In this document: one piece after another, positions 5,748-56,691 of the stretch | Position numbering within the stretch: position 1 is the first letter of the stretch | How the letters are laid out: the number at the start of each line of letters is the position of its first letter | NCBI GenBank assembly: GCA_046350795.1 | Contig: JAXLZT010000002.1 | Location: forward strand, 24,293-88,292 | DNA: 64,000 nucleotides | Direction: 5' to 3' | Source: Minisyncoccota bacterium | GTDB lineage: Bacteria > Patescibacteriota > Minisyncoccia > Phycocordibacterales > CALRHW01 | Program-made: the position numbers and the translations under genes | Notes under the pieces: generated by a model | What the model was told of the DNA's origin: nothing | What the model saw: the letters and a program-made list of their open reading frames with translations, nothing else | Database searches by the model: none

Positions 5748-5802
5748 TTGCTATTAGTAGCTCGAAAGTAAACTAAAATCAAAGATAGTTTCTATCTGAT
5801 GT

Positions 5803-7038: not shown

Positions 7039-7191
7039 AATTTTATTTTATCACTAATAATTTTTTTCCACACTTGCTCTCCGCATCGCCGCGGGAGTAT
7101 ACTGATATTCCAACTAGTTGCAAAGTTTCGCAACTATGAAATTAGTATACTCCAGGCGTTTGTCGGACGCAATAGGGGGAGGAAATGATTT

Positions 7192-10010: not shown

Positions 10011-10014
10011 TCAT

Positions 10015-10536
10015 ATGCACCTTGCATTTACAGGCAATGGAAAAGGAAAAACAACAGCAGCCATCGGCAACGCAATCAGAGTTATTGGAGCTGATAAACG
10101 CGCTCTCATGGTTCAGTTCATTAAGGGACCCTGGATATCTGGAGAGGATAAGTGTGCAGAGCGACTGGGACCGGATTTTAGAATTGTGAAAACAGGCAAA
10201 GGGTTCGTCGGTATTCTTGGAGACACGCTTCCGATCGAAGAACACCGAAATGCTGCCGAAGAAGGACTACGGATTGCAAAGAAAGAGATCGCCAGTGGCA
10301 AGTGGCATCTCTTAATTCTCGACGAAGTTCACAATGCCATCTCACTTGGCCTGCTTTCAGAGACGGTCGTCAGTACGTTTTTGGATTATGCAAAGAGTAA
10401 GGTTGAACACATCATCACGACTGGCCGCGATGCACCAAAACAAATCATCGAACATGCCGATCTGGTAACGGAGATGAAAGAAATCAAGCATCCGTATCAG
10501 ACGGGGCGGTTCGCAGAGAAAGGGTTAGATTTTTAA
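10015..10536 (+). CDS. cobO: ATP:cob(I)alamin adenosyltransferase (CobO/CobA/BtuR family)
   Basis: P-loop TGNGKGKTTAAIG followed by VQFIKG, both diagnostic of CobA/BtuR. About 173 aa. Confidence 0.8.
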   Translation: MHLAFTGNGKGKTTAAIGNAIRVIGADKRALMVQFIKGPWISGEDKCAERLGPDFRIVKTGKGFVGILGDTLPIEEHRNAAEEGLRIAKKEIASGKWHLLILDEVHNAISLGLLSETVVSTFLDYAKSKVEHIITTGRDAPKQIIEHADLVTEMKEIKHPYQTGRFAEKGLDF

Positions 10537-10547
10537 CAGCATATTGT

Positions 10548-10685
10548 CCCGATCGGGGAAGCAGGGTGTAATTCCCTCACAGTGCCGCTACGGTGAAAGT
10601 CCGAATGCCGATCAGGATATAATCCCGAGCAGGAAGACGCGCATATATGCGACGGCAATACTCCTCTCGGCAGAGGAGTATTTTT
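10548..10685 (+). promoter_or_regulatory. Probable cobalamin (B12) riboswitch with terminator-type expression platform
   Basis: GGGAAGCAGGGTGTAATTCCC...CACAGTGCCGCTACGGTGAAAG matches the cobalamin aptamer core consensus (GGGAAG..GGTG.AA.TCC...C.G.CCCGC.AC.GT.AA). The hairpin TACTCCTCTCGGCAGAGGAGTA plus TTTTT (10659-10685) abuts the ATG at 10686. Confidence 0.6.
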
Positions 10686-11159
10686 ATGACTAACAATAAA
10701 AAGATATATAGTGGGTTCATTGTTCTGGCGATACTTATTTTCGCCATTCTGTACTTTGGAGCACATAGAACAGAAGCCCCGTCGGTTTCAGTACCGGCAG
10801 TTTCAGAACAGGTACAAAGTCCTGTTCCCGAACAAGCGGTTCCTCCGGCCAAGAACGAACCTGTTTCTGCGCCGGAAGTTTCGAGCGCATTCAATGTTAC
10901 GGCTGGCACGGCAACACTTTCTCTTTCAACAACCGGCGGATCGTTTCTTTCTATTCTTTCTGCGGCAAAGGAGCGCGGAGAGTTGGCTTTTTCCGGCAAG
11001 GATTATCCTGGACTCGGATTTTTTGTAACGGAGATCGGCTCTTTGAAAGAAGGAAATGGCAAGCATCTCATGTACTACATTAACGGCACAGAGGCGTCAG
11101 TCGGCGTTTCTCTCTATGTTCCAAAAGCTGGCGATACCGTCGTCTGGGAACTCAAATAA
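10686..11159 (+). CDS. Membrane-anchored DUF4430-like protein (transcobalamin/intrinsic-factor C-terminal beta-domain-like); start corrected to MTNNKK
   Basis: N-terminal TM helix and a Pro/Val-rich linker. The C-terminal segment ...GKHLMYYINGTEASVGVSLYVPKAGDTVVWEL resembles the DUF4430 signature (GWMYxVNG....Y.LKDGD.I.W). The track start at 10647 would overlap the riboswitch terminator. Confidence 0.5.
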   Translation: MTNNKKIYSGFIVLAILIFAILYFGAHRTEAPSVSVPAVSEQVQSPVPEQAVPPAKNEPVSAPEVSSAFNVTAGTATLSLSTTGGSFLSILSAAKERGELAFSGKDYPGLGFFVTEIGSLKEGNGKHLMYYINGTEASVGVSLYVPKAGDTVVWELK

Positions 11160-11161
11160 GT

Positions 11162-13117
11162 ATGAAAAAACTTCTTGCAGTATTGTTTCTTTTTTGCGCC
11201 GTTAGCTTCGGAGTTCGTGCTTATGCCGACGATGTTCCTCTGGACACTCCAGTAGATCCTGCTCCTATTGTGGATGAGACACCGCCAGCCGAAGATCCTC
11301 TCCCGCTTCCGACTGCGACACTCATTATCCGCTCGGGAGACACGGTGCTCTACAGTGGCAGTGTTTCCATTCCTGAAGAGAGTTCCGTAGAGATTGCCGA
11401 TAGTACCGGCGCTCTGCATTCTGTTTCCGCGCGGAGCGTACTTGCACTTCTTACGGCGCTTGATGCTTCCAATGATGACTTTGCCATAACCAATCTCACA
11501 TACTATCCTTCGTTTTCTTCTTTCTATCTCAAATGTCTAACACCGAGCGGAGAAATTGAACAATGCGATAACTGGCAGTATGCTGTCGGCAGTACGACCC
11601 CGTCTAGCAGTATTGATACCACTATTCTTTCTGGCGGCGAAACGGTGGGACTATACTTCGGTTCTCCGCACCGAGTTTCTTTGAGTGCGACTTCTGTTAC
11701 AAAAGGCGATGCGTTTATCGCCACCGCGCAGTCCTACAATTATGCGGACAACACCTGGAATGCGCTCTCTGGCGTTACAATCGGAGCAACTGTGCCAAAT
11801 CCAGCCGATCCCTGGACTCCGATAGTGGTAACAACACAAGCAGTAGACGCAGATGGTAAAGCGACGATCACGCTTTCGGATGCCGGAAGTTACTCGGTCG
11901 GCATCGCGGAGGATTTCTACTTTCCTTCGTATGCGCTCTCGGTTACTGAACCGGCTCCTGTCGGCGGCGGTGGAGGTAGCATACCAATCCCAACATTCAG
12001 CGTTGATCGCGCACTTTCATATCTCTACTCGGTCCAGAATGCAGACGGATCTTTTGGAAGTGATCTCTATACTGATTGGGCAGGTATTGCGTATGCGGCA
12101 AGCGGCGCATCACAAAATGCAAAAACTTCACTCATTGGATACCTTTCTTCTCACTCGCAAATAAGCTCTTTGCTTACAGATAATGAACGTAGAGCGGTAG
12201 CACTGCTTTCACTGGAGCAAAATCCATACACGTTTAGCGGGACTAATTATATCTCTCCGATAGTTTCTTCTTTCGATGGGACACAGTTCGGCGATCCGTC
12301 GCTTGTAAACGACGACATCTTTGCACTCTTGCCACTCTCTGCTTCTGGCTATTCCGCGAGCGACGACATGATTGCAAAAGACATTCAGTTTCTGGTAAGC
12401 AAACAGCGACCAGACGGATCATGGGAAGGCAGTGTTGATCTTACTGCATCTGTCATACAAGCACTCCAAGCATTCAACGCCGCACCTGACTCTGTCGCAA
12501 AGGCGATCGCATATTTGCAAACAAATCAGCAGAATGACGGCGGGTTTGGATCAGTGTATTCGACGAGCTGGGCAATGCAGGCCGGAGCGACATGGAGCAA
12601 GAACGGAAAAGCGGGAGCTGATTATCTCGCCTCATCGCAAGCGCCAGACGGTGCGGCCATTCCTGGGAGCGAAAGTACGAACAATCGAGTATGGGCGACG
12701 AGCTATGCCATCCCCGCAGTGCTCGGAAAATCTTGGAGCACTATCATGCATCCAGTTCCAAAGCCACAGGTTGTGTCAACCGGATCTTCTTCTGCCACAC
12801 AGACCGAAACAGCAAAGACGCCGGAAGTAATTATCCAAAAGACAGAGGAATCTAAACCCGAGGAACTGCCCGTAGAAGTAGCGCCAAAGGTAGCGGAAAC
12901 TCAGATCACTCTTACTCATACTGAAAAACCTAAAATAACGCCTCAAGTTGAAAACAATATGGAAGAAATTAAGACCGAGAAACCAGTAGAGTCGACTTCT
13001 CTTGCAGCCGCCGCAGGAGAAAGCAAGACCGACATACCAACTCCGGTAGTTGCCGTATCGCTCGCCGGAATTGGGGTCCTGGCGCTTATTGCGCGGAAGA
13101 TCTTTTTGAAGTTCTAA
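11162..13117 (+). CDS. Cell-surface protein with alpha/alpha-toroid (prenyltransferase/squalene-cyclase-like) repeats; candidate cobalamin-binding (transcobalamin N-domain-like) protein
   Basis: Signal peptide. Repeated QW-like motifs (SVQNADGSFGS, SKQRPDGSWEG, TNQQNDGGFGS, SSQAPDGAAIPG). Pro/Glu-rich stalk and a C-terminal TM anchor (VAVSLAGIGVLALIARKIFLKF). Translationally coupled to the DUF4430-like gene. Confidence 0.5.
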   Translation: MKKLLAVLFLFCAVSFGVRAYADDVPLDTPVDPAPIVDETPPAEDPLPLPTATLIIRSGDTVLYSGSVSIPEESSVEIADSTGALHSVSARSVLALLTALDASNDDFAITNLTYYPSFSSFYLKCLTPSGEIEQCDNWQYAVGSTTPSSSIDTTILSGGETVGLYFGSPHRVSLSATSVTKGDAFIATAQSYNYADNTWNALSGVTIGATVPNPADPWTPIVVTTQAVDADGKATITLSDAGSYSVGIAEDFYFPSYALSVTEPAPVGGGGGSIPIPTFSVDRALSYLYSVQNADGSFGSDLYTDWAGIAYAASGASQNAKTSLIGYLSSHSQISSLLTDNERRAVALLSLEQNPYTFSGTNYISPIVSSFDGTQFGDPSLVNDDIFALLPLSASGYSASDDMIAKDIQFLVSKQRPDGSWEGSVDLTASVIQALQAFNAAPDSVAKAIAYLQTNQQNDGGFGSVYSTSWAMQAGATWSKNGKAGADYLASSQAPDGAAIPGSESTNNRVWATSYAIPAVLGKSWSTIMHPVPKPQVVSTGSSSATQTETAKTPEVIIQKTEESKPEELPVEVAPKVAETQITLTHTEKPKITPQVENNMEEIKTEKPVESTSLAAAAGESKTDIPTPVVAVSLAGIGVLALIARKIFLKF

Positions 13118-13144
13118 TCGGTAAAGATTGCTTTTTTTGCCGCA

Positions 13145-13492
13145 TTGTTGCATACTTTTGAAACTAGTATGCCTACGAAAAAATCATCAAAGAAAATAAA
13201 ACAGCCTCTCCCACGAACTGCGTACCGACGCAACGCCGAAACCTATAAGATCCTCGCTAATCCGAAGCGCCTTGAGATCCTGAACCTTCTCCGTGAGCAG
13301 GAAATGTCAGTAGAAGAACTGGTAAAAACCCTCGGCATATCAAAGGCCAATGTTTCCCAGCATTTGGCGCTCCTTCGCCATGCTGATCTCGTGACAGTCC
13401 GCCGCGAGGGACTCAACGGGTACTACAACATCATCGATCCTCGCATCGTAGAGCCATGCCGCATTCTCCATCAGCTTGCTTTGGCTCGATAA
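13145..13492 (+). CDS. ArsR/SmtB family transcriptional regulator
   Basis: HTH segment LEILNLLREQEMSVEELVKTLGISKANVSQHLALLRHADLV. Confidence 0.7.
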   Translation: MLHTFETSMPTKKSSKKIKQPLPRTAYRRNAETYKILANPKRLEILNLLREQEMSVEELVKTLGISKANVSQHLALLRHADLVTVRREGLNGYYNIIDPRIVEPCRILHQLALAR

Positions 13493-43625: not shown

Positions 43626-44419
43626 TAAAATCCCAAACCTTTCATAAACACATTGAGTTCTTCTCCTTTTAGCTCGCGGTAGCTACCTTTTGGTAATTTG
43701 CCAAGCTCTAGATTCATGATGCGCACTCGCTCTAGATCTACCACGTCGTTGAAAAGTGCAACGCACATGCGGCGGATCTGATGTTTTTTTCCTTCTGTAA
43801 GTATGATTCTAAACAAGTGATCGTTTATTACTTTTACTTTACAAGGCTTCGTCGTGTAGCTTTCTGTACCTTCTATGCGTACACCAGATTCCATTTTTTC
43901 TTTAAAATTTGCACGCAATTTTTCGCGAGTTTTTACAATGTATTCTTTTTCGTGAATATAGTCAGGGTTTAAAAGTTTGTCTGTGATACGGCCGTCATTG
44001 GTAAGTATTAAAAGTCCGTGTGAGTCCTTGTCGAGTCGGCCGACAGGGAAGACGCCATTTAGTTTTGTAGCACTGAGGACATCTTGCTCACCACGCTGAG
44101 GGGAGTGGGTGATCACTCCAACCGGCTTGTTGTATATGTAGTAGACATATTTTTTTGTTAGACTTCCTCCGCGCACTTCTACTAGATCATTTTCTTGTAC
44201 TTTGTCGCCAAGCACTGCAAGTCGGCCGTTGATATAAACTTTCTTTTTTTCCACGAGTTCATCGCCACCTTTTCGGGTAGCGTATTTTTTCAAAGCTAGA
44301 TATTTATTTATTCTCATTGGAAATTCTGGCTTTAATGGTTCGTTTATTTTGTTTGTTTTAGATGTTTTCATGTTGGCACTATAGCATATAAATAGCACAT
44401 AAATGTTTAAGGACCCCAA
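43625..44419 (-). CDS. rRNA pseudouridine synthase (RsuA/RluB family) with N-terminal S4 domain
   Basis: INKYLALKKYATRKGGDELVEKKKVYINGR (S4-like) and the catalytic-region motif GRLDKDSHGLLILTNDG. Confidence 0.75.
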   Translation of the reverse strand: MGSLNIYVLFICYSANMKTSKTNKINEPLKPEFPMRINKYLALKKYATRKGGDELVEKKKVYINGRLAVLGDKVQENDLVEVRGGSLTKKYVYYIYNKPVGVITHSPQRGEQDVLSATKLNGVFPVGRLDKDSHGLLILTNDGRITDKLLNPDYIHEKEYIVKTREKLRANFKEKMESGVRIEGTESYTTKPCKVKVINDHLFRIILTEGKKHQIRRMCVALFNDVVDLERVRIMNLELGKLPKGSYRELKGEELNVFMKGLGF

Positions 44420-44492
44420 AAATCTCGGGGTCCTGGTGTTGTGATGAGTGTCGACGCACGATCATGATTGAGTGGGTGAGGTGATTGAGTCT

Positions 44493-44852
44493 TCAGTTGT
44501 TGCTCACATCATGGCGTGACGCATTCTGTCGTTTCACCTCTCGTACGATTTCCTCGGAAGCCTCATCAATTAGAGCTTCCACCTCATCCAGGATCTCTCC
44601 GGCGGTCTTCTCGAAGTCGATGACGCCGTTGCTGGTGGTCGTCTTCCGTGGGAGATGAGACATCACTGATTCCATGAGATGACGCACCTCCTCAATCACA
44701 ACCTTGCCGTCATCCCTTGCCTTCTTCAGGATTGGAATGGCGTCTTCTTGGTATCGGAACCGGACACTTTCAGTCTCGTCGGAATACTGGAAGTGTCCCT
44801 CAACGATGCACATGCTTCGCACATATTGTGCTGGCCTGATGATCTTGCTCAA
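44493..44852 (-). CDS. GC-rich acidic hypothetical protein (about 120 aa) with TTG start and strong SD
   Basis: AAGGAGG lies 5 nt upstream of a TTG start (rc of 44850-44852). Coding-like composition (MSKIIRPAQYVRSMCIVEGHFQYSDETESVRF...EILDEVEALIDEASEEIVREVKRQ). The local GC content is much higher than in flanking genes. The track gives a longer ORF ending at 44936. Confidence 0.45.
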   Translation of the reverse strand: MSKIIRPAQYVRSMCIVEGHFQYSDETESVRFRYQEDAIPILKKARDDGKVVIEEVRHLMESVMSHLPRKTTTSNGVIDFEKTAGEILDEVEALIDEASEEIVREVKRQNASRHDVSNN

Positions 44853-45137
44853 GTGAGCCTCCTTGCAAAAGTGTAGGTGTGGTGTCGGGGAATGACGATG
44901 ATGAAGAACAAGCTTGGTACGCTCAATAACATACACTATATTTCAATATTGTCAAGCGGATGTAGAGTCTATGCATGTATACTTATAGCTTATTTCCTCG
45001 CTAGACTTGACATTTTTCCCATAATCGTCTATGCTTGGGCGCGTAAGAGTTATCTACTAGAAGAACGTAAGACTTGTTTCTTTGTTCGATATAGGGGATT
45101 CGAATCTTACGTTTTATTCATAAGCCCATAATTTATA

Positions 45138-45413
45138 ATGGCAAAGAAGTTATATGTTGGTGGTATTTCATACAATACTACTGACCAAGGATTATCAGAT
45201 GCGTTCGCAAAAGCAGGAACAGTTGTTTCAGCAACTATCATCACTGACAAAATGACAGGCCGATCAAAAGGCTTTGGTTTCGTAGAGATGAGTTCAGATG
45301 CAGAAGCAGATGCTGCTATCGAGATGTACAACGGAAAAGAACTCGATGGACGAAATTTGACAGTTAACGAAGCTCGACCAAAAGAAGATCGACCTCGTAA
45401 CAACTTCCGATAA
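45138..45413 (+). CDS. RRM-domain RNA-binding protein
   Basis: RNP2-like KLYVGGISYNTT and RNP1-like KGFGFVEM. 91 aa. Confidence 0.8.
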   Translation: MAKKLYVGGISYNTTDQGLSDAFAKAGTVVSATIITDKMTGRSKGFGFVEMSSDAEADAAIEMYNGKELDGRNLTVNEARPKEDRPRNNFR

Positions 45414-45436
45414 TTTATTATCAGGAGTTATCTACA

Positions 45437-45468
45437 AAAGACCGCCTTCACTGGCGGTTTTTTGTTTT
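45437..45468 (+). terminator. Rho-independent terminator after the RRM gene
   Basis: AAAGACCGCC TTCACT GGCGGTTTTTTGTTTTG gives a GC stem followed by a U-run. Confidence 0.6.
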
Positions 45469-45566
45469 GTATTCTCATTTGCTTTTATATTTTTGTTAGG
45501 TATTGTTTTTAAGGCGTAAGACTTGTTCTATCCGATTTACTGGTCTACCCACTGAGGAGCCATACT

Positions 45567-45806
45567 ATGACGAGCGAAGAGCTGAGAGTCGAGACCGTCA
45601 AACCGACCAGGCTGGTGTGCAGTGTCTGTGGCACTGAGTTTGCTGCGGGGTCGCCACAGATTTGTTCGATGTGTGATCCGCCGGAATCACTGCGTGTGGG
45701 TGCATCCGGAGATATCCAATCGATCACACCGCCGATCTGTAGTGAGTCGTGTTTCAAGAGGCATTGCAAGCAACACCACTCTCGGTCCACGCGTAGTGGC
45801 GGATGA
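45567..45806 (+). CDS. GC-rich small Cys-rich (zinc-ribbon-like) protein, 79 aa
   Basis: A GAGGAG SD 6 nt upstream of the ATG. CSVCGT...CSMCDP...CSESCFKRHC Cys pairs. Followed by a strong terminator. GC-rich relative to its neighbours. Confidence 0.45.
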   Translation: MTSEELRVETVKPTRLVCSVCGTEFAAGSPQICSMCDPPESLRVGASGDIQSITPPICSESCFKRHCKQHHSRSTRSGG

Positions 45807-45824
45807 AATGGGGGGGATCGACAT

Positions 45825-45860
45825 CTGAGCCCGAGCGTCAAAGACGCTCGGGCTCTTTCA
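45825..45860 (+). terminator. Rho-independent terminator (13-bp perfect GC-rich stem + T-run)
   Basis: GAGCCCGAGCGTC AAA GACGCTCGGGCTC TTTC. Confidence 0.7.
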
Positions 45861-45905
45861 ATATACATTGACAATATAACAGTTTTATTATATTCTTACG
45901 TCTAT

Positions 45906-47270
45906 ATGCATCCAAAAGGATCTACAAATAAAGGCCCATTTAAAGGGCGGACATCGAGCTCGGCCCGCCCACATGGTGGTCATAGCCGTTTTGGTGTACC
46001 TAGTCGTCCGGGAGGTACTAGCTCTATAGCACCGGGAACAGGAGCGTCTTCTAGTCGTTTTTCTAGAAGTCGTGGCAATTTTAGCAACCGAGGTGCTGGC
46101 CGTGGTAGCTTTGGTGGCGGTGGATATCGTGGCGGAGGAAGGGGTCGCGGTCGCGCTGGCATGGGAGAGCGTATTGACGTCTCAAAATTTATAAACAAAA
46201 CAGTTATCTCTGAAGAAGTAGAAGTTTTTATTCCCGACCATCAGTTTGCTGATTTTCATATTAATGACACGCTAAAAAAAGCTGTTATCGCAAAAGGTTA
46301 CACTACTCCTACACCTATTCAAGACAGATCTATTCCACATATTCTAAAAGGCGCTGATCTAGTCGGTATCGCAAATACTGGTACAGGAAAAACTGCCGCT
46401 TTTCTTATTCCTCTTATAAATAAAGTTATTTTAAATCCACGTGAGCAAGTGATGGTAATAGTGCCTACACGAGAACTCGCTATACAGATAGACCAAGAGC
46501 TTAAAGGTTTTACAAAAGGAATGAAAATCTTTTCTGTGGTGGCTGTGGGCGGTGCTCCTATTGGTCCTCAGATTCGTGAGCTTAAATATCACAATCAATT
46601 TATCATCGGAACTCCGGGAAGACTAAAAGATTTGATTGATAGAAAAATGATTCGTCTTTCATTATTTAAGTCTATTGTTTTAGATGAAGCTGATCGAATG
46701 CTAGACATGGGATTTATAAATGATATGCGTCTCATAATGTCTGGTATGCCAAAAGAAAGACAAACTCTTTTCTTTTCTGCGACACTTTCTCCTGAAATTG
46801 AAAAATTGATTGGTGAGTTTTTGCGTGAGCCTGTGCGTATATCTGTAAAGACTCGTGACACTTCAAAAAACGTAGAACAAGATATAGTGCGAATACAGCG
46901 CGGAATAAACAAGCTTGATGTGCTTCACGATCTTTTAAATCAAGAGGGTTTTAGTAAAGTGCTTATCTTTGGGCGCACAAAACATGGTGTAGAAAAGCTT
47001 TCTACAGCACTTGTAGCTAAAGGTTTTAAATCAGAATCAATACACGGTGACAAAAATCATTCAAAAAGACAAAAAGCCCTAAAGCTTTTCAAAGATAACC
47101 AAGTAAAAATACTCGTAGCTACAGACGTGGCTGCTAGAGGTTTGGATATTTCAGATATTACTCATGTGATCAACTATGATTTGCCTGCAACATACGAAGA
47201 CTATGTTCATCGTATAGGCAGAACTGGTCGTGGAAGTAAAAAAGGTAAAGCTCTGACTTTTATTGAATAA
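45906..47270 (+). CDS. DEAD-box ATP-dependent RNA helicase with N-terminal Arg/Gly-rich low-complexity extension
   Basis: Q-motif region, Walker A ANTGTGKTAAF, DEAD (VLDEADRMLDMGF), SAT, and motif VI HRIGRTGRG. N-terminal RGG repeats (GRGSFGGGGYRGGGRGRGRAG). Confidence 0.85.
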   Translation: MHPKGSTNKGPFKGRTSSSARPHGGHSRFGVPSRPGGTSSIAPGTGASSSRFSRSRGNFSNRGAGRGSFGGGGYRGGGRGRGRAGMGERIDVSKFINKTVISEEVEVFIPDHQFADFHINDTLKKAVIAKGYTTPTPIQDRSIPHILKGADLVGIANTGTGKTAAFLIPLINKVILNPREQVMVIVPTRELAIQIDQELKGFTKGMKIFSVVAVGGAPIGPQIRELKYHNQFIIGTPGRLKDLIDRKMIRLSLFKSIVLDEADRMLDMGFINDMRLIMSGMPKERQTLFFSATLSPEIEKLIGEFLREPVRISVKTRDTSKNVEQDIVRIQRGINKLDVLHDLLNQEGFSKVLIFGRTKHGVEKLSTALVAKGFKSESIHGDKNHSKRQKALKLFKDNQVKILVATDVAARGLDISDITHVINYDLPATYEDYVHRIGRTGRGSKKGKALTFIE

Positions 47271-47274
47271 AAAT

Positions 47275-47460
47275 ATGGCAACTCCTGTTTTAAAAAATAA
47301 TAAAAAGCACGATATGAAGACTCTTTCAAAAAAGACTTTTCAAAGTGCTGGAAAATGGATAGAAAAGCCAAGAGTTTCAGAGATATTGGTTTGTGCTTGT
47401 GGCAATAAATATATAAAGACTCGTAAAAATCAGACTGTTTGTGTGAGATGTATGAGATAA
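47275..47460 (+). CDS. Small basic Cys-containing protein (possible zinc ribbon), 61 aa
   Basis: An ATG 5 nt after the helicase stop. CACGNKYIKTRKNQTVCVRCMR. Low certainty that it is expressed. Confidence 0.3.
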   Translation: MATPVLKNNKKHDMKTLSKKTFQSAGKWIEKPRVSEILVCACGNKYIKTRKNQTVCVRCMR

Positions 47461-47516
47461 GTGTTTTTTTCTACTTTTGATATAATGTATCTATTAGTAG
47501 TTTAGATTAAAAAAAT

Positions 47517-47870
47517 ATGGGAGTTGTTTATCTTGTAGGACACATTGTTTTTGGAGGATATTTCCTAATGAATGCATATAATCATTTGATAAAAAATAAA
47601 GGAACTATCGGATATGCGCAGTTTAAGGGGGTGAAACATGCAAAGATGAAGGTGATTGTTTCTGGCCTGCTACTACTTGTTGGAGGAGTGTGCTTTGTGG
47701 GTGGATTTAGTTATTTCTGGGGAAGTCTCGCACTACTCGTTTTCATGATCCCGGTAACTTTCAAAATGCACGCTTTTTGGAAAGAGACAGATCCTCAAGC
47801 AAAGATGAATGAGCGTGTTAGTTTCTATAAAAACATGGCTATAGTGGGTGCACTCTTGATGATGCTCTAG
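47517..47870 (+). CDS. DoxX family membrane protein
   Basis: 117 aa and 3-4 TM helices. N-terminal pattern typical of DoxX (YFLMNAYNHLIKNK...). Confidence 0.6.
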   Translation: MGVVYLVGHIVFGGYFLMNAYNHLIKNKGTIGYAQFKGVKHAKMKVIVSGLLLLVGGVCFVGGFSYFWGSLALLVFMIPVTFKMHAFWKETDPQAKMNERVSFYKNMAIVGALLMML

Positions 47871-47971
47871 TCTATTGACTGAATAATTTTTAAATCGTAT
47901 TCTGTGGAAAGAAATGTGGCTACGTATGCCACGTTCTTTCGTTTAATGCCAACACGCCGAGGAGGTGATAA

Positions 47972-48487
47972 GTGTCTGAAGAATTTATCCGTATCAAAAC
48001 ACTCGGTCGCTTGGCACGCCTTGCCGACCAGATCATGGAACCCGTCATGCGCTTTGGTGCTGGTAAGGATGCTCAGGATGAAGCTCCGCAAGAGACTCAT
48101 CGCTGGAACAACCATCACCTGGATCGTAGTCTGATTAGGCTTTTGGACATACATCCCAAAAAGCTTGTGTCGGTCTGCGGTGATCCAGACGCCTGTCGGA
48201 GAGGAGCCTTTCGTTTCCACATGCCGAGATTTGGTGGATGGAGGAGGTATGTGGTGATCTCACCTGTGCCTGATTCGTCACTGAAGCCTTGGTACATCGG
48301 CTGGATTTCGGACGAAGTCTTTGGAGTCTCTCGACTGCCACTGTACGGTCCTGTGCGTGTACTGAGGGGGCCTCAAACCACCCACTTTTTCGGTATCTCC
48401 TCTGCTGGATCACAGATTAGGGTCCAGTGGTTTGGTGAAGGAGAGATCGGGAAGGGGGGTCCTTTTTCGAGAGTCAGACTGCGCTGA
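47972..48487 (+). CDS. GC-rich hypothetical protein (171 aa), GTG start with strong SD; coding status uncertain
   Basis: GGAGGTG SD (47961-47967) 4 nt before the GTG at 47972. A GC-rich island with overlapping ORFs in several frames. The translated product is Arg/Trp/Gly-rich, and nothing in it is recognisable. Confidence 0.35.
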   Translation: MSEEFIRIKTLGRLARLADQIMEPVMRFGAGKDAQDEAPQETHRWNNHHLDRSLIRLLDIHPKKLVSVCGDPDACRRGAFRFHMPRFGGWRRYVVISPVPDSSLKPWYIGWISDEVFGVSRLPLYGPVRVLRGPQTTHFFGISSAGSQIRVQWFGEGEIGKGGPFSRVRLR

Positions 48488-48562
48488 GCGAGGTGGTGGG
48501 ACTACAGCTCAAGCAACGAGTGAGAGTGACCGGTGAGATAAAGGGCAAACATGAGTAAAAAT

Positions 48563-48598
48563 GAGCGCCGCGACCAAAAGTCGCGGCGCTTTATCTTT
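48563..48598. terminator. Strong bidirectional intrinsic terminator
   Basis: AGCGCCGCGAC CAAAA GTCGCGGCGCT followed by TTATCTTTT on the + strand. The complementary strand also carries a T-run. Confidence 0.65.
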
Positions 48599-48822
48599 TA
48601 TCCTTTTGTAAAAGAAAATAGATACTCAAAGTTGGTATCTATTTTCGTAATGCACAAAGTTTATGAGTCTCTTGTGATAATATCGCATGAAGTGACTGTA
48701 CTACTTCATAGCTTTTAATATTATTAATCATAGACTTTGGCATCTGGGCCGAGTCGACCTCTCTGGCTCTGTGTAGATTGTTACAAATGATTAATAAAAT
48801 ATTTATAAAGAAGCGATAAAGA

Positions 48823-49617: not shown

Positions 49618-52600
49618 GTGGTATTAATAATTTATGAAAAAACCACAAATTTTATGAAAAATCTCTTATTTATTGGGGCAAGAGGGCAAAAACACAGTCT
49701 TTTATCAAGGTTTTTTATTAAATCGACAGCAGGGCTGTTGATTTTTTTATTTGCTTTTCCGGTGGGGGTAGTTTGGGGAGAAGATCACAGTATCGATAAA
49801 AACCACAACAGATCAGCTGAAAAAACAGATACAATAAAACCATCAGACCCAGAAAAACACGATGTTGGTGTTGTACCAACTATATCTGAAGTAGCTCCAT
49901 CTCATAGATCAAAAAAGGATTCTAGAGATGAATCTGATAAGGAGGTGGTTCCACAGTTATTGCTTGATGAAGATGCAAATAATATAGTAGAAAATCCTAG
50001 TTCAATAAAAAGTTTATTGCCTGACGTTGATACTTTTTCTGGATCTCTTGTTTATAAATATCCAATAGTTTTGCCAGCTGGTCGCAACGGTCTTACCCCA
50101 AGTCTTGATCTTACATACAATAGTGGTTTGTCATTAAATAATAGTATTTCTGGATACAACTGGTCTCTTTCTATTCCTTTTATAGAACGTATAAACAGAA
50201 AAGGTGCTGACAAGCTTTACTCAAGGAATGATTTTGTATCGTCTCTTTCAGGTGAGCTTGTAGCAGAAAATGGTACCACTAAATATACAGCAAAAGTTGA
50301 TGAAGGTTCTTTTCTAGATTATACATTCACAAATGATACTTGGACTGCTGTAGATAAACAGGGAACAAAATATACTTTCGGCTCTACTACTCAGTCACGT
50401 TTAAACAATGCTTCTAACGCATCAGAAACTTATCGTTGGATGGTGGAAGAGATTCGTGATAAAAATGACAATTTCATTAGATTTGAGTATGAAAAAGACA
50501 GTAATCAAATCTATCCTTCAAATATTTTTTATACAGGATATGGAAGTACGGACGGTATTTTTGAAGTAAATTTTAATTATGAAAATAGAGAAGATGAAAC
50601 CAATAGTTTTGCATCAAGATTTGAGATGGTTACTTCAAGGCGTCTTGAGAACATAGAAATAAATATAAACGGTGTTTTATCAAAGAAATATTCTTTAGCA
50701 TACATCGCTGGTCACAACACCGTCAGATCTTTATTAAAATCAATCACTGTGTCGGCTGGAACCACCACATTGCCTGCAACGGAATTTGAATATCAGACTA
50801 TACCAAAAAAATTAGAATTTAAACCTGATGTTTTTCAGTCACCATCATTTTACAGGCCATCTACATCAGATTATGCTTTTATTGAATTAAAAGAGAGTCC
50901 TGAATCTACAAATAGACTTGTTGATGTCAACGGCGATGGTCTTTTGGATTTTATACGTACTTCTAATAGCGAAAACAGTGATGGTATTGTTCATGACATA
51001 AATAATGATTTGCCTCGCGTTTTCCTAAACACAGGTCATAGTTGGGAATTTAATCCAGATAAATACCAGTTACCTTCTTATTACCGACCTAGTACAAATG
51101 ATTATAAGTATATGGTTCTAAATGATGTCAATAAACTCATTGATGTTAACGGGGACAATTTACCAGATTTTATTCATACTTCAGATGTAGCTGATGCTGA
51201 TGGTGTGATCACTAACAACAATGATGGTTTCCCGAGAGTCTATTTAAATACTGGTAATGGTTGGGAATTTAATCCAGATAAATATCAATTACCTTCTTAT
51301 TACCGACCTAGTACAAATGATTATTTTTTCTTTCAGACAAAAGAAGAGGAGCACGATGTTACGCAGATAATAGATGTCAACGGTGATGGGCTACCAGATT
51401 TTGTGCGTACATCCGACGATGAGGATGCTGATGGTGTTGTTCTTAACAATAACAACTCTGCTCCTCGTGTATATCTAAATACTGGTAACGGTTGGGAATT
51501 TAATCCAAATAAATATCAACTTCCTGTTTATTACAGACCTAGTACAAATGATTATTATTTTATGGCACTTAAATCTGTCCCAGGATCTACAAACAGACTT
51601 ATTGATGTCAATGGTGATGGGTTAGTAGATTTTTTGAGAACAAATGACACTGAGGATGCTGATGGAGTTGTTTTAAATAACAACGGTGATGCACCACGTG
51701 TTTATCTAAATACTGGCAACGGCTGGGAATTTAATCCAGATCACTATCAGCTTCCTGTGTATTACAGACCGCCTACAAATGATTATCATTTTATGGCACT
51801 TAAGGAGTTTACACAGCTTGCTGATGTAAATGGCGACGGTTTGCCAGATTTTGTCCGTACAGACGATGGTGAGCATGCGACGGGTGTTATAACAAATCTA
51901 AATGGTGATGGTCCACGTGTTTATCTAAACACAGGAAATGGTTGGAAGTTTGATCCCGATTTGTATCAGTGGCCGGCATTTTACAAGCCAGCTACAAACA
52001 ATTATGAGTGGAGAGCTTTGAAGACTAGTAATCAGCTCATAGATATAAACGGTGATAATCTATTGGATTTTGTGCGCACATCTGCTGGTGAGGATGCTGA
52101 TGGACTAATACTTAATAATAATGGTGATGGATCTCGTGTATATATAAATACAGGAAAAGGTTGGGAATTTAACCCTGATTTATATCAATTACCTTCGTAT
52201 TATAGACCGTCTACATCAGACTATTATTTTATGCAACTTTCATATTACTCTAAATTTGCTGATATAAACAACGATGGATTGCAAGATTTTATTAAGACTA
52301 CAAGCGAATTTGATTCTGATGGTCTTATTCTGAATAATCTAAACGATGGTGCAAGAGTATACCAGAATGTTGGGGAAACCGCTGATTATTTAGCAGCTGT
52401 TATTTTTCCAGAGGGTGGAGAGGCACATTTCGATTATCAACTTGAAATAATAAACGGCAGAAATCCAAGTAGTCCATATTATTCTCAAAATGTTTCTGTG
52501 CTTAAAGATATTGTCATAGATGATGGTCTGGGGAATCTAGCAACAAGTACATATAAGTACAAAGATGGAGAGTATTTTTATCATAACGATCCATTTAAAC

Positions 52601-55600
52601 AATTTACAGGATTCAGTAAGGTAGAAAAAACAGACGCTCTAGGGAATTTAACAAAATCATATTTCCATCAAGGTAACGCTTCAGCTACAAGTACCGGTGA
52701 ATACGATGATCACATTTCAAAAATGGGAAAGATGTATCGCACAGAGCAGTACGATGCAAACGGCAATCTTTTTTCAAAGACCATAAATAAGTGGGATCAC
52801 TTTGATACTTTGACTGCTGCGGGTGCGACTTCTACTTTTGTAAAACTCGTAGATACTGTGGAGTTTGCATATGACGGAGATTCTGATCATAGAGAGAAAG
52901 CAGAAAGTTATGCGTATGATAATACCAATGGTAATTTGTCACAAAAAATATCTTGGGGTGAGGTAAATGGTAATAATGATGGCACTTTTTCAGATACTGG
53001 AAGCGACAAAACTACGACTAGTATGACATATGCCACAAGCTCAACTACCAGTGTTTTACCATCAAGCTTCTTACCGTCTCGTGAACTCGTTGTCGATCAA
53101 TATGGCGCTGTAGTACGTGATACAAAATCATATTATGACAATCTCTCTTTTGGATTAATAGATAAAGGTAATCTAACAAAGCAGGAAATGCTAAAAAGTG
53201 GTTCGTCATATATCGATGTAGAAAAGATCTACAATAGCTACGGTCTTGTGACACAGGAAAAAGATCCACGCGATAAAGCAACGAGTTACTCATACGATCC
53301 TTTCAACTTATATCCAGCAACTACTACAAATCCTATAGGACAAACGACGAATGCTTTGTATGATTATTCGTCAGGCAAGCCAAAGCAGATTACAGATGCA
53401 AATGGGTGGGTGTTTCAGATAATATACGACGGTCTAGGAAGAATAATAGAAGAAAAACAGCCAGATACAGTATCGCCCGCAACTCTTGTTACAAAATCCT
53501 CCTATGTTTATGAGGACGACACTTTCCCTACGAGTGTAATGAAAACGGATTATTTAAATGGCCTATCTACTTCTTCGTCTACCGTTGATTCGTATAAATA
53601 TTTTGATGGTTTGGGTCGCGTAATACAAGAGCGCCGACGTGCAGAAGATAGTAATACATATAGTGTAAAAGACACACAGTATGGTCTGACAGGACAAAAA
53701 TCTCGTGAGTCACTGCCATACTTTAGCACCGGATCTGCACGTACTAGTGCGACTGGTACAAATTCACTTTGGAACAATTTCACTTACGATGCACTTGGAA
53801 GGATAAAGACTATTGCAAACTCGGTTGGTACAATAACAAATACGTATGATGATTGGAAACTCACTGTTACCGACGCAAATGGTAAATCAAAAGATTTATA
53901 CAAAGACGCGCGGGGTAATCTGGTGCAAGTAGACGAACACAATTCTGGTGATACATATAGTACATACTATGAATGGAATCCACTTGGTAACCTGACAAAA
54001 ATAACAGATGCACTCGGTAATATTCGCAACTTCACATATGACAAATTGGGTCGTCGTTTGACAGCAGAAGATTTACACTATTCTGGCGATGGTAATTTTT
54101 CTACTTGGACCTATACATATGATGATGCTGGTAACACAACTTCTGTAGTTGATGGAAAAGGGCAAACCGTAAACCATACATATGATGATATCAACCGCGC
54201 ACTTACAGAAGACTTTACTGGTGAAAAGGGAACAGAGATTACATATGGATACGATATTTGTAGCAACGGAAAGGGAAAAATTTGTTTTGCTACTAGTACT
54301 GATGCTCTGGCTGGTAGGACGGTAGTATCATATACATATGACGCACTCGGTCGCACATCTAGTGAGGCAAAAAATATTGCTGGTACAACATACCAGACAA
54401 ATAATGAATATGATCGCTTGGGCAACCAGACACTTGTTACTACCCCAGACGGAGCGCAAATAAAATACGAATACAACTCTGGTGGAATGGTAGAAAAAAT
54501 AGCTCGTAAGGGAGCGGGAGCGGGTTCATTTGTAAATGTGGTTGAGGATTTTGACTACTCTCCAGAAGGAAAAATAGTATATCAAAACAATCACAATGAA
54601 ACTGCGACAACAAATACATATGATGCTAGTCACCTGTATCGTCTAACTGATAAATTTACCGATGGACCAGCATGGGGCATCACAAATGTCCTTCAGGATT
54701 TGCACTATACATATGACAATGTAGGCAATATCACACAGTTGTCTGATACTTCAGAAACAAACAACAGTAAAACTATAGTTTACACTTATGACGATCTTTC
54801 ACGGCTCACTATGGCTTCTAGTACTGCTGTGGGTGACGGTCCAGCATACAAAGAGACTTACACATATAACGCCATCGGCAACATTCTTACAAAAAGTGAC
54901 TTAGGTACATATCTATATTCCGGTGCCACATCTACTACTCTCTTTACCAATCCTCACGCTGTCACGTCTGTAAACGGTACAGCGTACACCTACGACCGCA
55001 ATGGCAATACCACACAGGCAGGTACGGCCACAAGTAGCTGGAACTATAGAAACCAAATGATAAGTATGAAAGTGGGAGCGACTACCACCACCTACGTCTA
55101 CGACCATACGGGTGATCGTGTAAAATACACTAACAAACTTTCTACTATCGTATATCCCAACAAGCTATACAACATAGAGATACCAGTTGGTACTTCTACT
55201 ATGGCTACTACCACCGCAAGTCATATTTTCCTAGGTGACACCATGATAGCTACAGTAGAAAAGGTGGGTACTACCACAGAAGCTATACACTACATACACA
55301 CAGATCATCTCTCGGGTGCCAACATATCTACAGACAAAGACGGCCTTGTCACTGAAATCACCGATTTCTACCCATATGGAGACCAGAGACTAAACAAGAG
55401 CTACAATGGTAACTTTAAAGAACAAAGGAAGTTTACAGGGCACGAGTATGATGAGGATACGGGGTTGAATTATATGGGGGCGAGGTATCAGAATGGGAAT
55501 ATCGGGAGGTTTATGAGTGAGGATCCGGCCTTTCTCAAATTTGACCCAAATACTTCAGAAGGAAAGATGATGTTAATGGATCCACAACATCAAAACTCCT

Positions 55601-56316
55601 ACTCGTACGCTAGAAACAATCCGCTTGTATACACAGATCCAGATGGAGAGTTTGCACAGATTATCGCGGGTGTAGCAATTGGTGCCGCAGTGGGAGGTGT
55701 TATTGGAGGAACTGTATCAGCAATATCAGGAAATAGTTTCTGGTCGGGTGCAAAGTATGGAGCTATATCTGGAGCTACCGCAGGTCTCGTTATCTCTACT
55801 GCTGGTATGGGAGCGGCCGCTCTAGGTCTTACTTCATCAGAGGCCATAATCGGAGGATCTGCCGTTGGAAATGCATTAGGAAACGTGGCTGCTCGTGCCG
55901 CTGATGGACAATCTACTACTCCTGGCGATGTGGGAATGGATCTTGTAACTGGTGGAGCGGCTGGCATATTGAATGTGGGATATCTTAAAACACAAGGAGT
56001 TATTGGTAAAAATGGAAATTATATACCGACCATGTCAGCAAAAGATCTGCCGGCAGAGGCAAAAGCATTACTGGGTGAATACAACTCAAATGGTTGGTCT
56101 AAGGCACAAAGTGGACCAACTGGTGATCCACACACCTGGCAAAATCACGCTGGCGAACTTCCTTCTAGGGCAACAATATTTGACGCACAGTACAGTACGG
56201 GGCGGAGTCGAGGTTTAGAAAGGTTTGCGAATACTGGAAATAATGTTTATTATTCAAATACGCATTATGGTCAAGTCCCTAGAGGATCAAATCCATTCTT
56301 TAAATTAAAAAAATAG
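49618..56316 (+). CDS. Giant TcB/TcC-like polymorphic toxin: SpvB-like N-domain, 8x FG-GAP-like propeller repeats, RHS/YD-repeat shell with RHS core, variable C-terminal toxin domain
   Basis: SpvB-like region PDVDTFSGSLVYKYPIVLPAGRNGLTPSLDLTYNSGLSLNNSISGYNWSLSIPFIERINRKG. Repeats DVNGDGLPDF...PRVYLNTGNGWEF occur 8 times. Many YD motifs (YTYDALGR, YDKLGRR). RHS core end GHEYDEDTGLNYMGARYQNGNIGRFMSEDP, followed by a Gly-zipper and a unique 200-aa tail. Confidence 0.8.
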   Translation: MVLIIYEKTTNFMKNLLFIGARGQKHSLLSRFFIKSTAGLLIFLFAFPVGVVWGEDHSIDKNHNRSAEKTDTIKPSDPEKHDVGVVPTISEVAPSHRSKKDSRDESDKEVVPQLLLDEDANNIVENPSSIKSLLPDVDTFSGSLVYKYPIVLPAGRNGLTPSLDLTYNSGLSLNNSISGYNWSLSIPFIERINRKGADKLYSRNDFVSSLSGELVAENGTTKYTAKVDEGSFLDYTFTNDTWTAVDKQGTKYTFGSTTQSRLNNASNASETYRWMVEEIRDKNDNFIRFEYEKDSNQIYPSNIFYTGYGSTDGIFEVNFNYENREDETNSFASRFEMVTSRRLENIEININGVLSKKYSLAYIAGHNTVRSLLKSITVSAGTTTLPATEFEYQTIPKKLEFKPDVFQSPSFYRPSTSDYAFIELKESPESTNRLVDVNGDGLLDFIRTSNSENSDGIVHDINNDLPRVFLNTGHSWEFNPDKYQLPSYYRPSTNDYKYMVLNDVNKLIDVNGDNLPDFIHTSDVADADGVITNNNDGFPRVYLNTGNGWEFNPDKYQLPSYYRPSTNDYFFFQTKEEEHDVTQIIDVNGDGLPDFVRTSDDEDADGVVLNNNNSAPRVYLNTGNGWEFNPNKYQLPVYYRPSTNDYYFMALKSVPGSTNRLIDVNGDGLVDFLRTNDTEDADGVVLNNNGDAPRVYLNTGNGWEFNPDHYQLPVYYRPPTNDYHFMALKEFTQLADVNGDGLPDFVRTDDGEHATGVITNLNGDGPRVYLNTGNGWKFDPDLYQWPAFYKPATNNYEWRALKTSNQLIDINGDNLLDFVRTSAGEDADGLILNNNGDGSRVYINTGKGWEFNPDLYQLPSYYRPSTSDYYFMQLSYYSKFADINNDGLQDFIKTTSEFDSDGLILNNLNDGARVYQNVGETADYLAAVIFPEGGEAHFDYQLEIINGRNPSSPYYSQNVSVLKDIVIDDGLGNLATSTYKYKDGEYFYHNDPFKQFTGFSKVEKTDALGNLTKSYFHQGNASATSTGEYDDHISKMGKMYRTEQYDANGNLFSKTINKWDHFDTLTAAGATSTFVKLVDTVEFAYDGDSDHREKAESYAYDNTNGNLSQKISWGEVNGNNDGTFSDTGSDKTTTSMTYATSSTTSVLPSSFLPSRELVVDQYGAVVRDTKSYYDNLSFGLIDKGNLTKQEMLKSGSSYIDVEKIYNSYGLVTQEKDPRDKATSYSYDPFNLYPATTTNPIGQTTNALYDYSSGKPKQITDANGWVFQIIYDGLGRIIEEKQPDTVSPATLVTKSSYVYEDDTFPTSVMKTDYLNGLSTSSSTVDSYKYFDGLGRVIQERRRAEDSNTYSVKDTQYGLTGQKSRESLPYFSTGSARTSATGTNSLWNNFTYDALGRIKTIANSVGTITNTYDDWKLTVTDANGKSKDLYKDARGNLVQVDEHNSGDTYSTYYEWNPLGNLTKITDALGNIRNFTYDKLGRRLTAEDLHYSGDGNFSTWTYTYDDAGNTTSVVDGKGQTVNHTYDDINRALTEDFTGEKGTEITYGYDICSNGKGKICFATSTDALAGRTVVSYTYDALGRTSSEAKNIAGTTYQTNNEYDRLGNQTLVTTPDGAQIKYEYNSGGMVEKIARKGAGAGSFVNVVEDFDYSPEGKIVYQNNHNETATTNTYDASHLYRLTDKFTDGPAWGITNVLQDLHYTYDNVGNITQLSDTSETNNSKTIVYTYDDLSRLTMASSTAVGDGPAYKETYTYNAIGNILTKSDLGTYLYSGATSTTLFTNPHAVTSVNGTAYTYDRNGNTTQAGTATSSWNYRNQMISMKVGATTTTYVYDHTGDRVKYTNKLSTIVYPNKLYNIEIPVGTSTMATTTASHIFLGDTMIATVEKVGTTTEAIHYIHTDHLSGANISTDKDGLVTEITDFYPYGDQRLNKSYNGNFKEQRKFTGHEYDEDTGLNYMGARYQNGNIGRFMSEDPAFLKFDPNTSEGKMMLMDPQHQNSYSYARNNPLVYTDPDGEFAQIIAGVAIGAAVGGVIGGTVSAISGNSFWSGAKYGAISGATAGLVISTAGMGAAALGLTSSEAIIGGSAVGNALGNVAARAADGQSTTPGDVGMDLVTGGAAGILNVGYLKTQGVIGKNGNYIPTMSAKDLPAEAKALLGEYNSNGWSKAQSGPTGDPHTWQNHAGELPSRATIFDAQYSTGRSRGLERFANTGNNVYYSNTHYGQVPRGSNPFFKLKK

Positions 56317-56334
56317 TCAGGTAATATAAAAAAT

Positions 56335-56691
56335 ATGAAAGAATTCAAATTTGATTTCGTCGGTAAAAAAACAGAAAATGATTTTGCTGAACATTTCTAT
56401 AGATCTTTGAACGAATTAACAGGTCTGCCTCTTCTTGTTTTGCCCAGCATTCATCCCGATGGTCTATATGACGATTTGTTCGGATTTCTATCCAGTAAAG
56501 AATTTATAGGTAAGTTTGGAAAAGATATTTACTTTGTTCTTCAAAATACAAATGAGCTAAAACAAGAAGAACCAAAAGTATTAGAAAATACACTGTTGGC
56601 TCTTGAGGAAACAAAAAAAGAATTGAAAGAAAACCAATATCTAAAAAAAGATGAGAAAACTATAAATTTCAACTATTCTATAGAGAACTAA
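56335..56691 (+). CDS. Candidate cognate immunity protein for the RHS C-terminal toxin
   Basis: 118 aa, cytoplasmic and acidic, starting 19 nt after the toxin stop. This is the position typical of RHS/CDI immunity genes. No recognised domain. Confidence 0.4.
   Translation: MKEFKFDFVGKKTENDFAEHFYRSLNELTGLPLLVLPSIHPDGLYDDLFGFLSSKEFIGKFGKDIYFVLQNTNELKQEEPKVLENTLLALEETKKELKENQYLKKDEKTINFNYSIEN

Follow-up and report, generated by a model that had tools for sequence, protein, structure and literature searches.

Horizontal gene flux marked by atypical base composition is already a well-known phenomenon, and hypervariable loci with conserved flanks are exemplified by the swapped C-terminal tips of RHS/polymorphic toxins and by the immunity genes that belong to these. 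Phage morons are independent transcription units spread by horizontal transfer (PMC3594210), and in the FESNov catalogue signal and transmembrane (TM) segments are reported to be enriched in the novel families of Patescibacteria (PMC10849945). Here we describe three small genes, the open reading frames (ORFs) ORF1, ORF2 and ORF3, which lie within 4 kb of contig JAXLZT010000002.1 of a Minisyncoccota bacterium; the whole stretch analysed, 64,000 nucleotides long, is called the window below. We consider it probable that these genes are self-contained units, foreign in composition, that were gained or exchanged independently of one another by recombination within the Patescibacteria gene pool, and the class that suits them best is that of horizontally acquired genomic islets, here of very small size. 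A unit of this kind would consist of a promoter, a strong Shine-Dalgarno (SD) sequence, an ORF and a hairpin terminator, set between conserved AT-rich housekeeping genes. The locus gives a base-pair view of a reduced, AT-rich Patescibacteria genome that acquires and swaps single genes without a recognisable mobile element.

Composition, signals and coding status

The product of ORF1 is 100% identical to the NCBI entry 'hypothetical protein U0522_03385' of a Candidatus Paceibacterota metagenome-assembled genome (MAG), and contigs of the same species match the window at 98.5-100% identity. Comparisons were made with three relatives, L001, L003 and L048 (approximately 80-90% nucleotide identity), the contigs having been found via homologs and an identical RRM protein, and with the same-species genome L045 (GCA_964417815.1, CAYQIZ010000001.1). 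Within the species, as judged from L045, all three genes are stable and their variation is unremarkable.

The window has a GC content of 40.3%, or 38.6% once a GC-richer block at its left end is set aside. Three islands, at 44401-44940 (50%), 45481-45900 (49%) and 47901-48640 (51%), stand out from surroundings of 30-40%, and the ORFs within them reach 51.7% (ORF1), 56.2% (ORF2) and 53.1% (ORF3), so that 'GC-rich' here means moderate, about 52-56%, and not high. The contrast extends to third codon positions, where GC content (GC3) is 0.625, 0.600 and 0.523 for ORF1, ORF2 and ORF3 compared to a window median of 0.32. These values rank 1st, 2nd and 6th among the 51 genes of the window, and the remaining high-GC3 genes are all confined to a single block at 3.4-13.5 kb. 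First and second positions (GC1 and GC2), and hence the amino-acid composition, are shifted too; for ORF1 the values at the three codon positions are 0.58/0.34/0.63. Across 71 Patescibacteria loci (approximately 0.9 Mb) there were 16 comparable small GC3-outlier ORFs, five of them in the window, and three such genes inside 4 kb represent clustering beyond chance.

The translation signals are equally distinctive. No SD-like 4-mer was present near any candidate start in 36 of the 49 large ORFs of the window, and the only 7- and 8-nt SD matches among these belong to ORF1 and ORF3; at the 71 loci an SD of at least 5 nt precedes just 8.5% of the large ORFs. Literature searches on SD usage or GC islands in these bacteria gave no directly relevant work. 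Promoter-like sites were found for ORF1 and ORF3, all three genes end in hairpin terminators, and these signals are conserved in relatives (Table 1). The observations of the first-pass annotation were thus sound as regards the positions and starts of the three ORFs (TTG after AAGGAGG in ORF1, ATG after GAGGAG in ORF2, GTG in ORF3), their GC excess, the perfect GC terminator of ORF2, the lack of an SD in most native genes and the lack of a recognisable function; the strand of ORF1, which is the minus strand, is a detail that it had not given.

In AT-rich genomes, GC-rich patches frequently turn out to be RNA genes. If the islands were structured non-coding RNAs and the ORFs incidental, this would fit the long antisense ORFs that are present and the folding of the ORF2 island, which is slightly better than that of shuffled sequence (z = -1.6 and -2.1, terminator included). 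The terminator is, however, the sole stable element in the folding ensemble of that island. Rfam covariance models gave nothing in the islands, either at the gathering score across the whole window or at E up to 10 for 44300-48800, and ARAGORN found no tRNA or tmRNA. Differences between ORF3 and its L003 ortholog are distributed 20/18/60 over codon positions 1/2/3, with a ratio of nonsynonymous to synonymous divergence (dN/dS) of 0.17, and ORF3 homologs keep their full length down to approximately 40% identity. The ratio is 0.25 for ORF2 against its L048 ortholog, which differs by an in-frame indel, and 0.07 for residues 1-70 of ORF1 against L001. Because no Rfam model matches and the substitutions relative to the orthologs are codon-structured, ORF1, ORF2 and ORF3 are real protein-coding genes and not RNA genes; the RNA reading is refuted as the main explanation, and the chance we leave it is negligible.

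Neither the GenBank record of this genome nor several Logan contigs (L046, L047) list ORF2 and ORF3 as genes, even though the sequence is present, and ORF1 is called in the L045 record with an over-long start that gives 147 aa. The omissions are presumably due to the atypical composition. Accessory gene content in such genomes may therefore be undercounted by gene callers. A more tentative and rather doubtful idea is that SD-led foreign single-gene units of this kind could form an overlooked, fast-exchanging accessory layer in Patescibacteria genomes.

Presence, absence and replacement in close relatives

The clearest case is ORF3. L048 aligns to the window up to 47864 and resumes at 48606, so that exactly the ORF3 unit is missing, and its DoxX terminator hairpin follows directly after the DoxX stop codon. 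Since L048 joins those two elements directly, the unit in the window sits between the DoxX stop codon and the DoxX terminator, which is now displaced downstream. L003 carries ORF3 at the same place, with 55.6% GC compared to 38-41%, and its ORF3 leader is 94% conserved. A degenerate TTGTAA target duplication at the unit, seen by eye, was not convincing. We take the difference to reflect a gain: ORF3 would be a relocated copy of a widespread, unnamed Patescibacteria family that landed between the DoxX stop codon and its terminator.

The intergenic stretch that follows, from the ORF3 unit to the stop codon of the response-regulator gene (48613-48822), is approximately 93% conserved relative to L003, which exceeds the conservation of synonymous sites in the genes on either side, and L048 conserves it too. 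Besides the DoxX terminator it contains TTGTGATAATAT, which is promoter-like, and a small hairpin, ATGAAGT...ACTTCAT, and it may be a small RNA or regulatory element.

At ORF1 the gene body, rather than the gene, is variable. The promoter core is conserved in both L001 and L048 and the sequence downstream of the core is not, while the terminator is near-identical in both, the sole change being one loop-proximal base of the 5' stem arm in L048. Between these signals, blastn gave no alignment to L048 across 44444-44930, despite flanks that are 89-92% identical. The corresponding place in L048 is occupied by a 112-aa GTG-start ORF with 58% GC and a GC3 of 0.72, the product of which is 30% identical to ORF1 (BLASTP E = 6e-8). 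Nonsynonymous divergence (dN) at this slot is 0.85 and synonymous sites are saturated, compared to a dN of 0.03 or less and a synonymous divergence (dS) of 0.1-0.4 in the flanking genes. Replacement by an old divergent allele appears more economical than divergence in place, since the latter would need extreme positive selection over the whole gene.

L001 carries an ORF1 ortholog of 48% GC, 60% identical over all 119 residues (56% over the 106-residue called protein). This gene is itself a mosaic, in which the N-terminal 70 residues are conserved and the C-terminal part is replaced. The SD and the TTG start are conserved in L001, and the TTG start call is confirmed by the first 13 codons, which lie ahead of the first Met and differ by synonymous changes only. 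All three known ORF1 alleles are GC-rich (48-58%). A search of 5.8 billion proteins returned only ORF1 itself and the L001 ortholog, and 0.99 Mb of related DNA contained no further relatives of ORF1 or ORF2. The structure prediction for ORF1 was weak (predicted local distance difference test, pLDDT, 60) and was not used.

ORF1 would then be a clade-restricted gene whose transcribed body is swapped among deeply diverged alleles while promoter and terminator stay fixed. Old alleles that recombination shuffles and that diversifying or balancing selection maintains would give such a pattern, and the selection may be likened to that on interaction or immunity determinants. We offer as a tentative and rather doubtful suggestion the stronger form of this idea, namely that the locus is a fixed expression slot whose body is exchanged between ancient alleles under balancing selection; if true, a determinant of interaction or immunity in an ultra-small symbiotic bacterium could be encoded there. 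As a separate candidate, ORF1 as the target of a diversity-generating retroelement was rejected, as the 64-kb window holds no second copy of any island and the substitutions are spread over all four bases. No template repeat or adenine bias was found in the window, and no search aimed at a reverse transcriptase was made.

The divergence of ORF1 alleles between conserved flanks resembles that of arms-race or balancing-selection loci, the three proteins are small and uncharacterised, and a polymorphic toxin gene of the RHS type is located 1.1 kb downstream of ORF3. For one or more of the genes these features would suit a toxin-antitoxin or anti-defence function, as the first-pass annotation had proposed, or an immunity function. 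Searches against Pfam, PHROGs, PADLOC and NCBIfam, however, gave no significant match for the three proteins, for the L048 alleles or for 47 members of the ORF3 family, and with PADLOC the three proteins had no match even at E up to 1; nothing was found in PDB sequence searches with single proteins and profiles. The genes are neither adjacent nor co-transcribed, no partner gene accompanies them, and L048 retains the RHS gene without ORF3. We regard a function of this kind as highly improbable.

ORF2 encodes a small Cys-rich protein with two CxxC pairs plus C-x21-C-x3-C. Its ortholog in L048 is 87% identical and keeps all Cys residues, and an in-frame insertion of 60 nt there adds CPFC...CAEC, an extra CxxC pair. 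The SD core is kept in L048 as GGAG, with a 2-nt alignment gap, and the terminator is conserved with one base changed; the ORF2 promoter is a weak match, read by eye only. In L001, ORF2 is absent downstream of the RRM gene, homology to the window ending after the RRM terminator with a different ORF next. The search of 5.8 billion proteins retrieved ORF2 itself only. The CxxC pairs are conserved, but no zinc-finger profile reaches its cut-off, the best Pfam E-value being 0.02. The protein may resemble TRASH or FCS-type fingers. ORF2 could be a zinc-ribbon-type protein of recent origin, restricted to this clade, in which CxxC pairs come and go.

Self-blast revealed that 13 nt of the ORF2 leader recur at 45066-45078 in the leader of the RRM gene. 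Of the seven CGTAAGA sites in the window, five lie within 45042-45900, in the leaders of the RRM, ORF2 and DEAD genes, the last of these just upstream of the DEAD-box helicase start codon (45894-45900). Because the leader motif is common to both genes, we infer that ORF2 may be regulated together with the RRM gene, and possibly with the helicase too.

The different ORF that lies downstream of the RRM gene in L001 (1-513, minus strand) is unannotated, encodes more than 171 aa and has no Pfam match. Its GC3 is 0.47, compared to 0.24 in the RRM gene, and a long palindromic hairpin lies ahead of it together with a near-consensus promoter. The place downstream of the RRM gene seems, from these contigs, to take different cargo in different relatives.

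Table 1. Positions of the three genes and of their signals; numbering is that of the window, except for the last two rows
Feature	Position	Strand	Remarks
ORF1 CDS	44493..44852	-	119 aa, TTG start after AAGGAGG; orphan protein, clade-confined
ORF1 promoter-like site	44928..44955	-	TTGACA, 16 nt, TATGTT; consensus scan
ORF1 terminator hairpin	44410..44434	-	AGGACCCC, loop, GGGGTCCT; read from sequence
ORF1 hypervariable segment	44444..44930	-	5' untranslated region, CDS and 3' untranslated region, i.e. the transcribed body; replaced in L048
CGTAAGA motif in ORF2 leader	45515..45521	+	part of a 13-nt copy, CGTAAGACTTGTT, of the RRM-gene leader
ORF2 SD	45554..45559	+	GAGGAG, 7 nt before ATG; read from sequence
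ORF2 CDS (coding sequence)	45567..45806	+	79 aa, Cys-rich: C18xxC21, C33xxC36, C58x3C62, C67
ORF2 terminator	45827..45855	+	perfect 13-bp G+C-rich stem, 3-nt loop; in the minimum-free-energy fold
ORF3 unit	47865..48605	+	741 bp; absent from L048
ORF3 promoter-like site	47875..47903	+	TTGACT, 17 nt, TATTCT; consensus scan
Terminator-like hairpin in ORF3 leader	47913..47935	+	just downstream of DoxX; scan; stem conserved in L003
ORF3 CDS	47972..48487	+	171 aa, GTG after AGGAGGTG, in-frame TAA directly upstream
ORF3 own intrinsic terminator	48563..48591	+	scan: 12 pairs, 9 G-C, T-rich tail; conserved in L003
Original DoxX terminator hairpin	48614..48646	+	displaced downstream of ORF3 unit; perfect 12-nt inverted repeat
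Uncalled ORF2 in L045	4430-4666		annotation comparison
Uncalled ORF3 in L045	in gap 6733-7684		annotation comparison

Taken together, the contigs indicate that the three genes are accessory, acquired or exchanged, and not ancient residents, since their presence varies among close relatives or a different allele takes their place. They also appear to be separate monocistronic units and not the cassette that had first been suggested, because conserved AT-rich genes (for a pseudouridine synthase, the RRM protein, the DEAD-box helicase and DoxX) divide them and because their patterns of presence and absence differ. The genes would be unrelated and would not work together; each may belong to the flexible gene pool of the lineage and have been gained or exchanged separately. 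The first-pass annotation had held that GC-biased orthologs at the same position in all related AT-rich genomes would make the genes ancestral. Such orthologs do exist, for ORF1 in L001, for ORF3 in L003 and for ORF2 in L048, but at least one similarly distant relative lacks each gene or has it replaced.

The ORF3 family and the likely source

Only ORF3 has a wide family. An exhaustive profile search yielded 411 cluster representatives at 50% identity (E up to 0.001), of which 202 also pass the stricter limit of 1e-30, and nearly all members are approximately 165 aa long. Solid relatives were located at 36 loci in species-representative genomes, and 34 of these are MAGs labelled as Patescibacteria lineages or simply 'bacterium', the lineage labels being Paceibacterota, Kaiserbacteria, Azambacteria, Moraniibacteriota, Minisyncoccia and 'Saccharibacteria'-labelled bins. 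The remaining two comprise one labelled Bdellovibrionales and one weak Lacipirellulaceae match.

Members share the conserved core PQxTHxWNN...FHxPxxGGWxxYVV...GVSRIP..VRxLxGP. ORF3 aligns with the family end to end and has all of the invariant and nearly invariant residues (M26, N46, H83, W90 and G110, with P39, Q40, T42, H43 and W45 also among the conserved set). The AlphaFold2 model (pLDDT 82, predicted template modelling score 0.80) gives a confident predicted fold of an N-terminal helix followed by a beta-sandwich. In ten of the 150 best family representatives the N-terminus is extended by a signal, lipobox or TM segment, a hint of the cell envelope; ORF3 itself has no room for an extension of this kind, as its GTG follows directly on an in-frame TAA. 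The protein may bind or modify a ligand at or near the cell envelope, and a family of 411 clusters with no solved relative is a reasonable target for structural and functional work.

At 19 of 39 loci the family member lies in a conserved block of an ATP-grasp gene, an uncharacterised gene, a PolB-like exonuclease gene, ORF3, GH1 and two membrane-protein genes, and we take this block as the ancestral context of the family. The in-block copies do not deviate in composition from their own genomes (mean GC3 difference +0.001), and out-of-block copies exceed their own genomes by a mean of +0.083 (Mann-Whitney p = 0.012). The window ORF3, at +0.247 over its neighbours, is the extreme of the 39 family loci; its L003 counterpart stands at +0.191. 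Deviation among the relocated copies is upward in 15 of 20; the other five have a lower GC3 than their hosts, by as much as -0.19, which is what donors of differing composition would produce.

A regression on the in-block copies assigns the composition of the window ORF3 to a genome of approximately 49-50% GC, and the source is on this ground likely to be another, moderate-GC Patescibacterium and not a high-GC host. The earlier claim of recent horizontal acquisition from a high-GC donor, possibly the host, holds as regards acquisition, as the genes are foreign at synonymous sites and variably present or replaced. The donor that it named was not supported, the ORF3 family being centred on Patescibacteria and the composition matching a genome of about 50% GC. 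The most likely route would be recombination of taken-up DNA from other Patescibacteria of approximately 50% GC, probably by uptake followed by homology-assisted recombination.

A possible objection is that the genes are native and long resident, with GC content and strong SDs selected for expression, mRNA stability or structure-dependent regulation. The GC excess is indeed kept by same-position orthologs (the 55.6% of ORF3 in L003 and the 48% of ORF1 in L001), all three ORF1 alleles are GC-rich, the ORF3 family averages approximately 4 GC points above the host genome overall, and the promoters are near consensus. The family does not, however, need high GC3, because the in-block copies lack any excess, and members in AT-rich genomes have a GC3 as low as 0.26-0.31. 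The neighbouring RRM gene, which is probably highly expressed, has a GC3 of 0.29, and each of the three genes is absent or replaced in some close relative. Long native residence is in our judgement unlikely.

The GC excess could alternatively be a by-product of frequent recombination, through GC-biased gene conversion, with no bearing on donor composition. There are clear signs of recombination here: the ORF1 slot has been recombinationally replaced, with a mosaic inside the gene, dS relative to L048 ranges from 0.1 to 1.8 along the region, and the upward deviation of 15 of the 20 relocated ORF3 copies has the direction that conversion would give. Against this stand the five relocated copies that are GC3-poorer than their hosts, which fit varied donors, and the shift of GC1 and GC2 along with GC3. 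Gene conversion as the cause is quite unlikely.

Finally, the moron-like build of the units, with an independent promoter and terminator and atypical GC, might indicate phage morons, remnants of integrated elements, or DNA from a high-GC host. No relatives were found in IMG/VR, INPHARED (GenBank phages) or PLSDB (plasmids), the neighbouring genes include none of phage, integrase or transposase type, terminal repeats are absent, and the ORF3 family occurs almost only in Patescibacteria MAGs. An origin from phages or mobile elements is largely refuted for the sampled collections, and we hold this group of explanations to be very improbable.

Independent acquisition within Patescibacteria remains the explanation that we favour, and several points weigh against it. 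A sampled donor is lacking: the nearest ORF3 relatives outside the clade are only 42-50% identical, and for ORF1 and ORF2 no relative was found beyond the clade. The GC richness of the ORF1 alleles could be a property of the gene family and not of donors. An SD of at least 5 nt precedes about half of the ORF3 family, in-block copies included, and for this reason an SD alone is no mark of foreignness. Neither terminal repeats nor a target duplication nor a mobility gene was found at the ORF3 unit (only short repeats at chance level were present), and because none of the 133 loci supplied a further outgroup that keeps the synteny of DoxX and the response-regulator gene, the choice between gain and loss of ORF3 rests on parsimony.

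Neighbouring loci and comparison with known systems

Other parts of the window show features of their own. A contiguous block of approximately 10 kb at 3444-13492 has a GC3 of 0.43-0.56, compared to the median of 0.32, and is probably a larger acquired island. Judged by eye from N-terminal sequences, it seems to contain restriction-modification-like genes as well as genes resembling those for an ATP-cone ribonucleotide reductase (7734-10010) and a cobalamin adenosyltransferase (10015-10536). At 10541-10618, upstream of membrane or secreted proteins, there is an AdoCbl-II riboswitch (57 bits, E = 2e-11). At 49618-56691 lies the gene for a 2232-aa RHS/SpvB-type repeat protein with a GC-richer C-terminal tip (55621-56240), and a small ORF (56335-56691) follows in the usual position of an immunity gene; from this arrangement the two would be a polymorphic-toxin locus that adjoins the studied region.

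Leaders of RRM genes across Patescibacteria contain a hairpin with the arms GTAAG...CTTAC, often 'GGTCGGCTTAC', approximately 25-30 nt upstream of the start codon. It is present at 38 of 79 loci (L054-L133), the window copy lying in the leader at 45042-45111, and is not in Rfam. Its 5-bp core is invariant, the flanking pairs show weak covariation, and the choice of arms is biased towards pairing; we regard the hairpin as a candidate for an autoregulatory leader. In the DEAD-box helicase gene, the promoter-like site (within 45868-45906) ends 9 nt before the ATG, which suggests that its mRNA is leaderless or nearly so, and the GC-rich 5' part of the gene (45925-46200) codes for an N-terminal extension rich in Gly, Arg and Ser. 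Immediately downstream of the helicase gene, an AT-rich ORF at 47275-47460 encodes a basic 61-aa protein with CxC...CxxC, conserved in L003 (87%) and L048 (83%). By its composition and conservation it appears to be a native small zinc-ribbon-like protein, in contrast to ORF2.

Compared to described systems, the units lack the adjacent, co-transcribed pair with homology to known families that characterises toxin-antitoxin systems. ORF2 is like small zinc-ribbon proteins in C18xxC21 and C33xxC36, to which the L048 ortholog adds CxxC...CxxC, but it reaches the cut-off of no zinc-finger family (best Pfam E-value 0.02). ORF1 is similar to hypervariable toxin and immunity loci in its saturated divergence between near-identical flanks and in its mosaic of a conserved N-terminal and a replaced C-terminal part; it differs in having no toxin partner or recognisable domain, and in that the replaced segment is the transcribed region.

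The ORF3 family can be likened, by kind only, to the families of the FESNov catalogue (PMC10849945), being Patescibacteria-centred, under purifying selection and partly conserved in context, with a signal or TM segment in a minority of members and no Pfam, NCBIfam or PDB relative. The window ORF3 differs from that picture, as its position is not in the conserved context and it lacks a signal peptide. With phage morons the units share the single gene with its own promoter and terminator, the foreign composition and the patchy presence. They lack the defining phage or prophage location, lying between chromosomal housekeeping genes (those named above and the response-regulator gene), and have no PHROGs match or phage relatives.

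Genomic islets provide the closest fit in atypical GC3 and patchy distribution, and ORF3 is found outside the usual context of its family. The present units are very small for such islets (0.4-0.75 kb, one gene each) and have no tRNA, integrase or repeat boundaries. They are further set apart by their clustering, three within 4 kb, and by an implied donor that would belong to the same radiation and not to a distant phylum.

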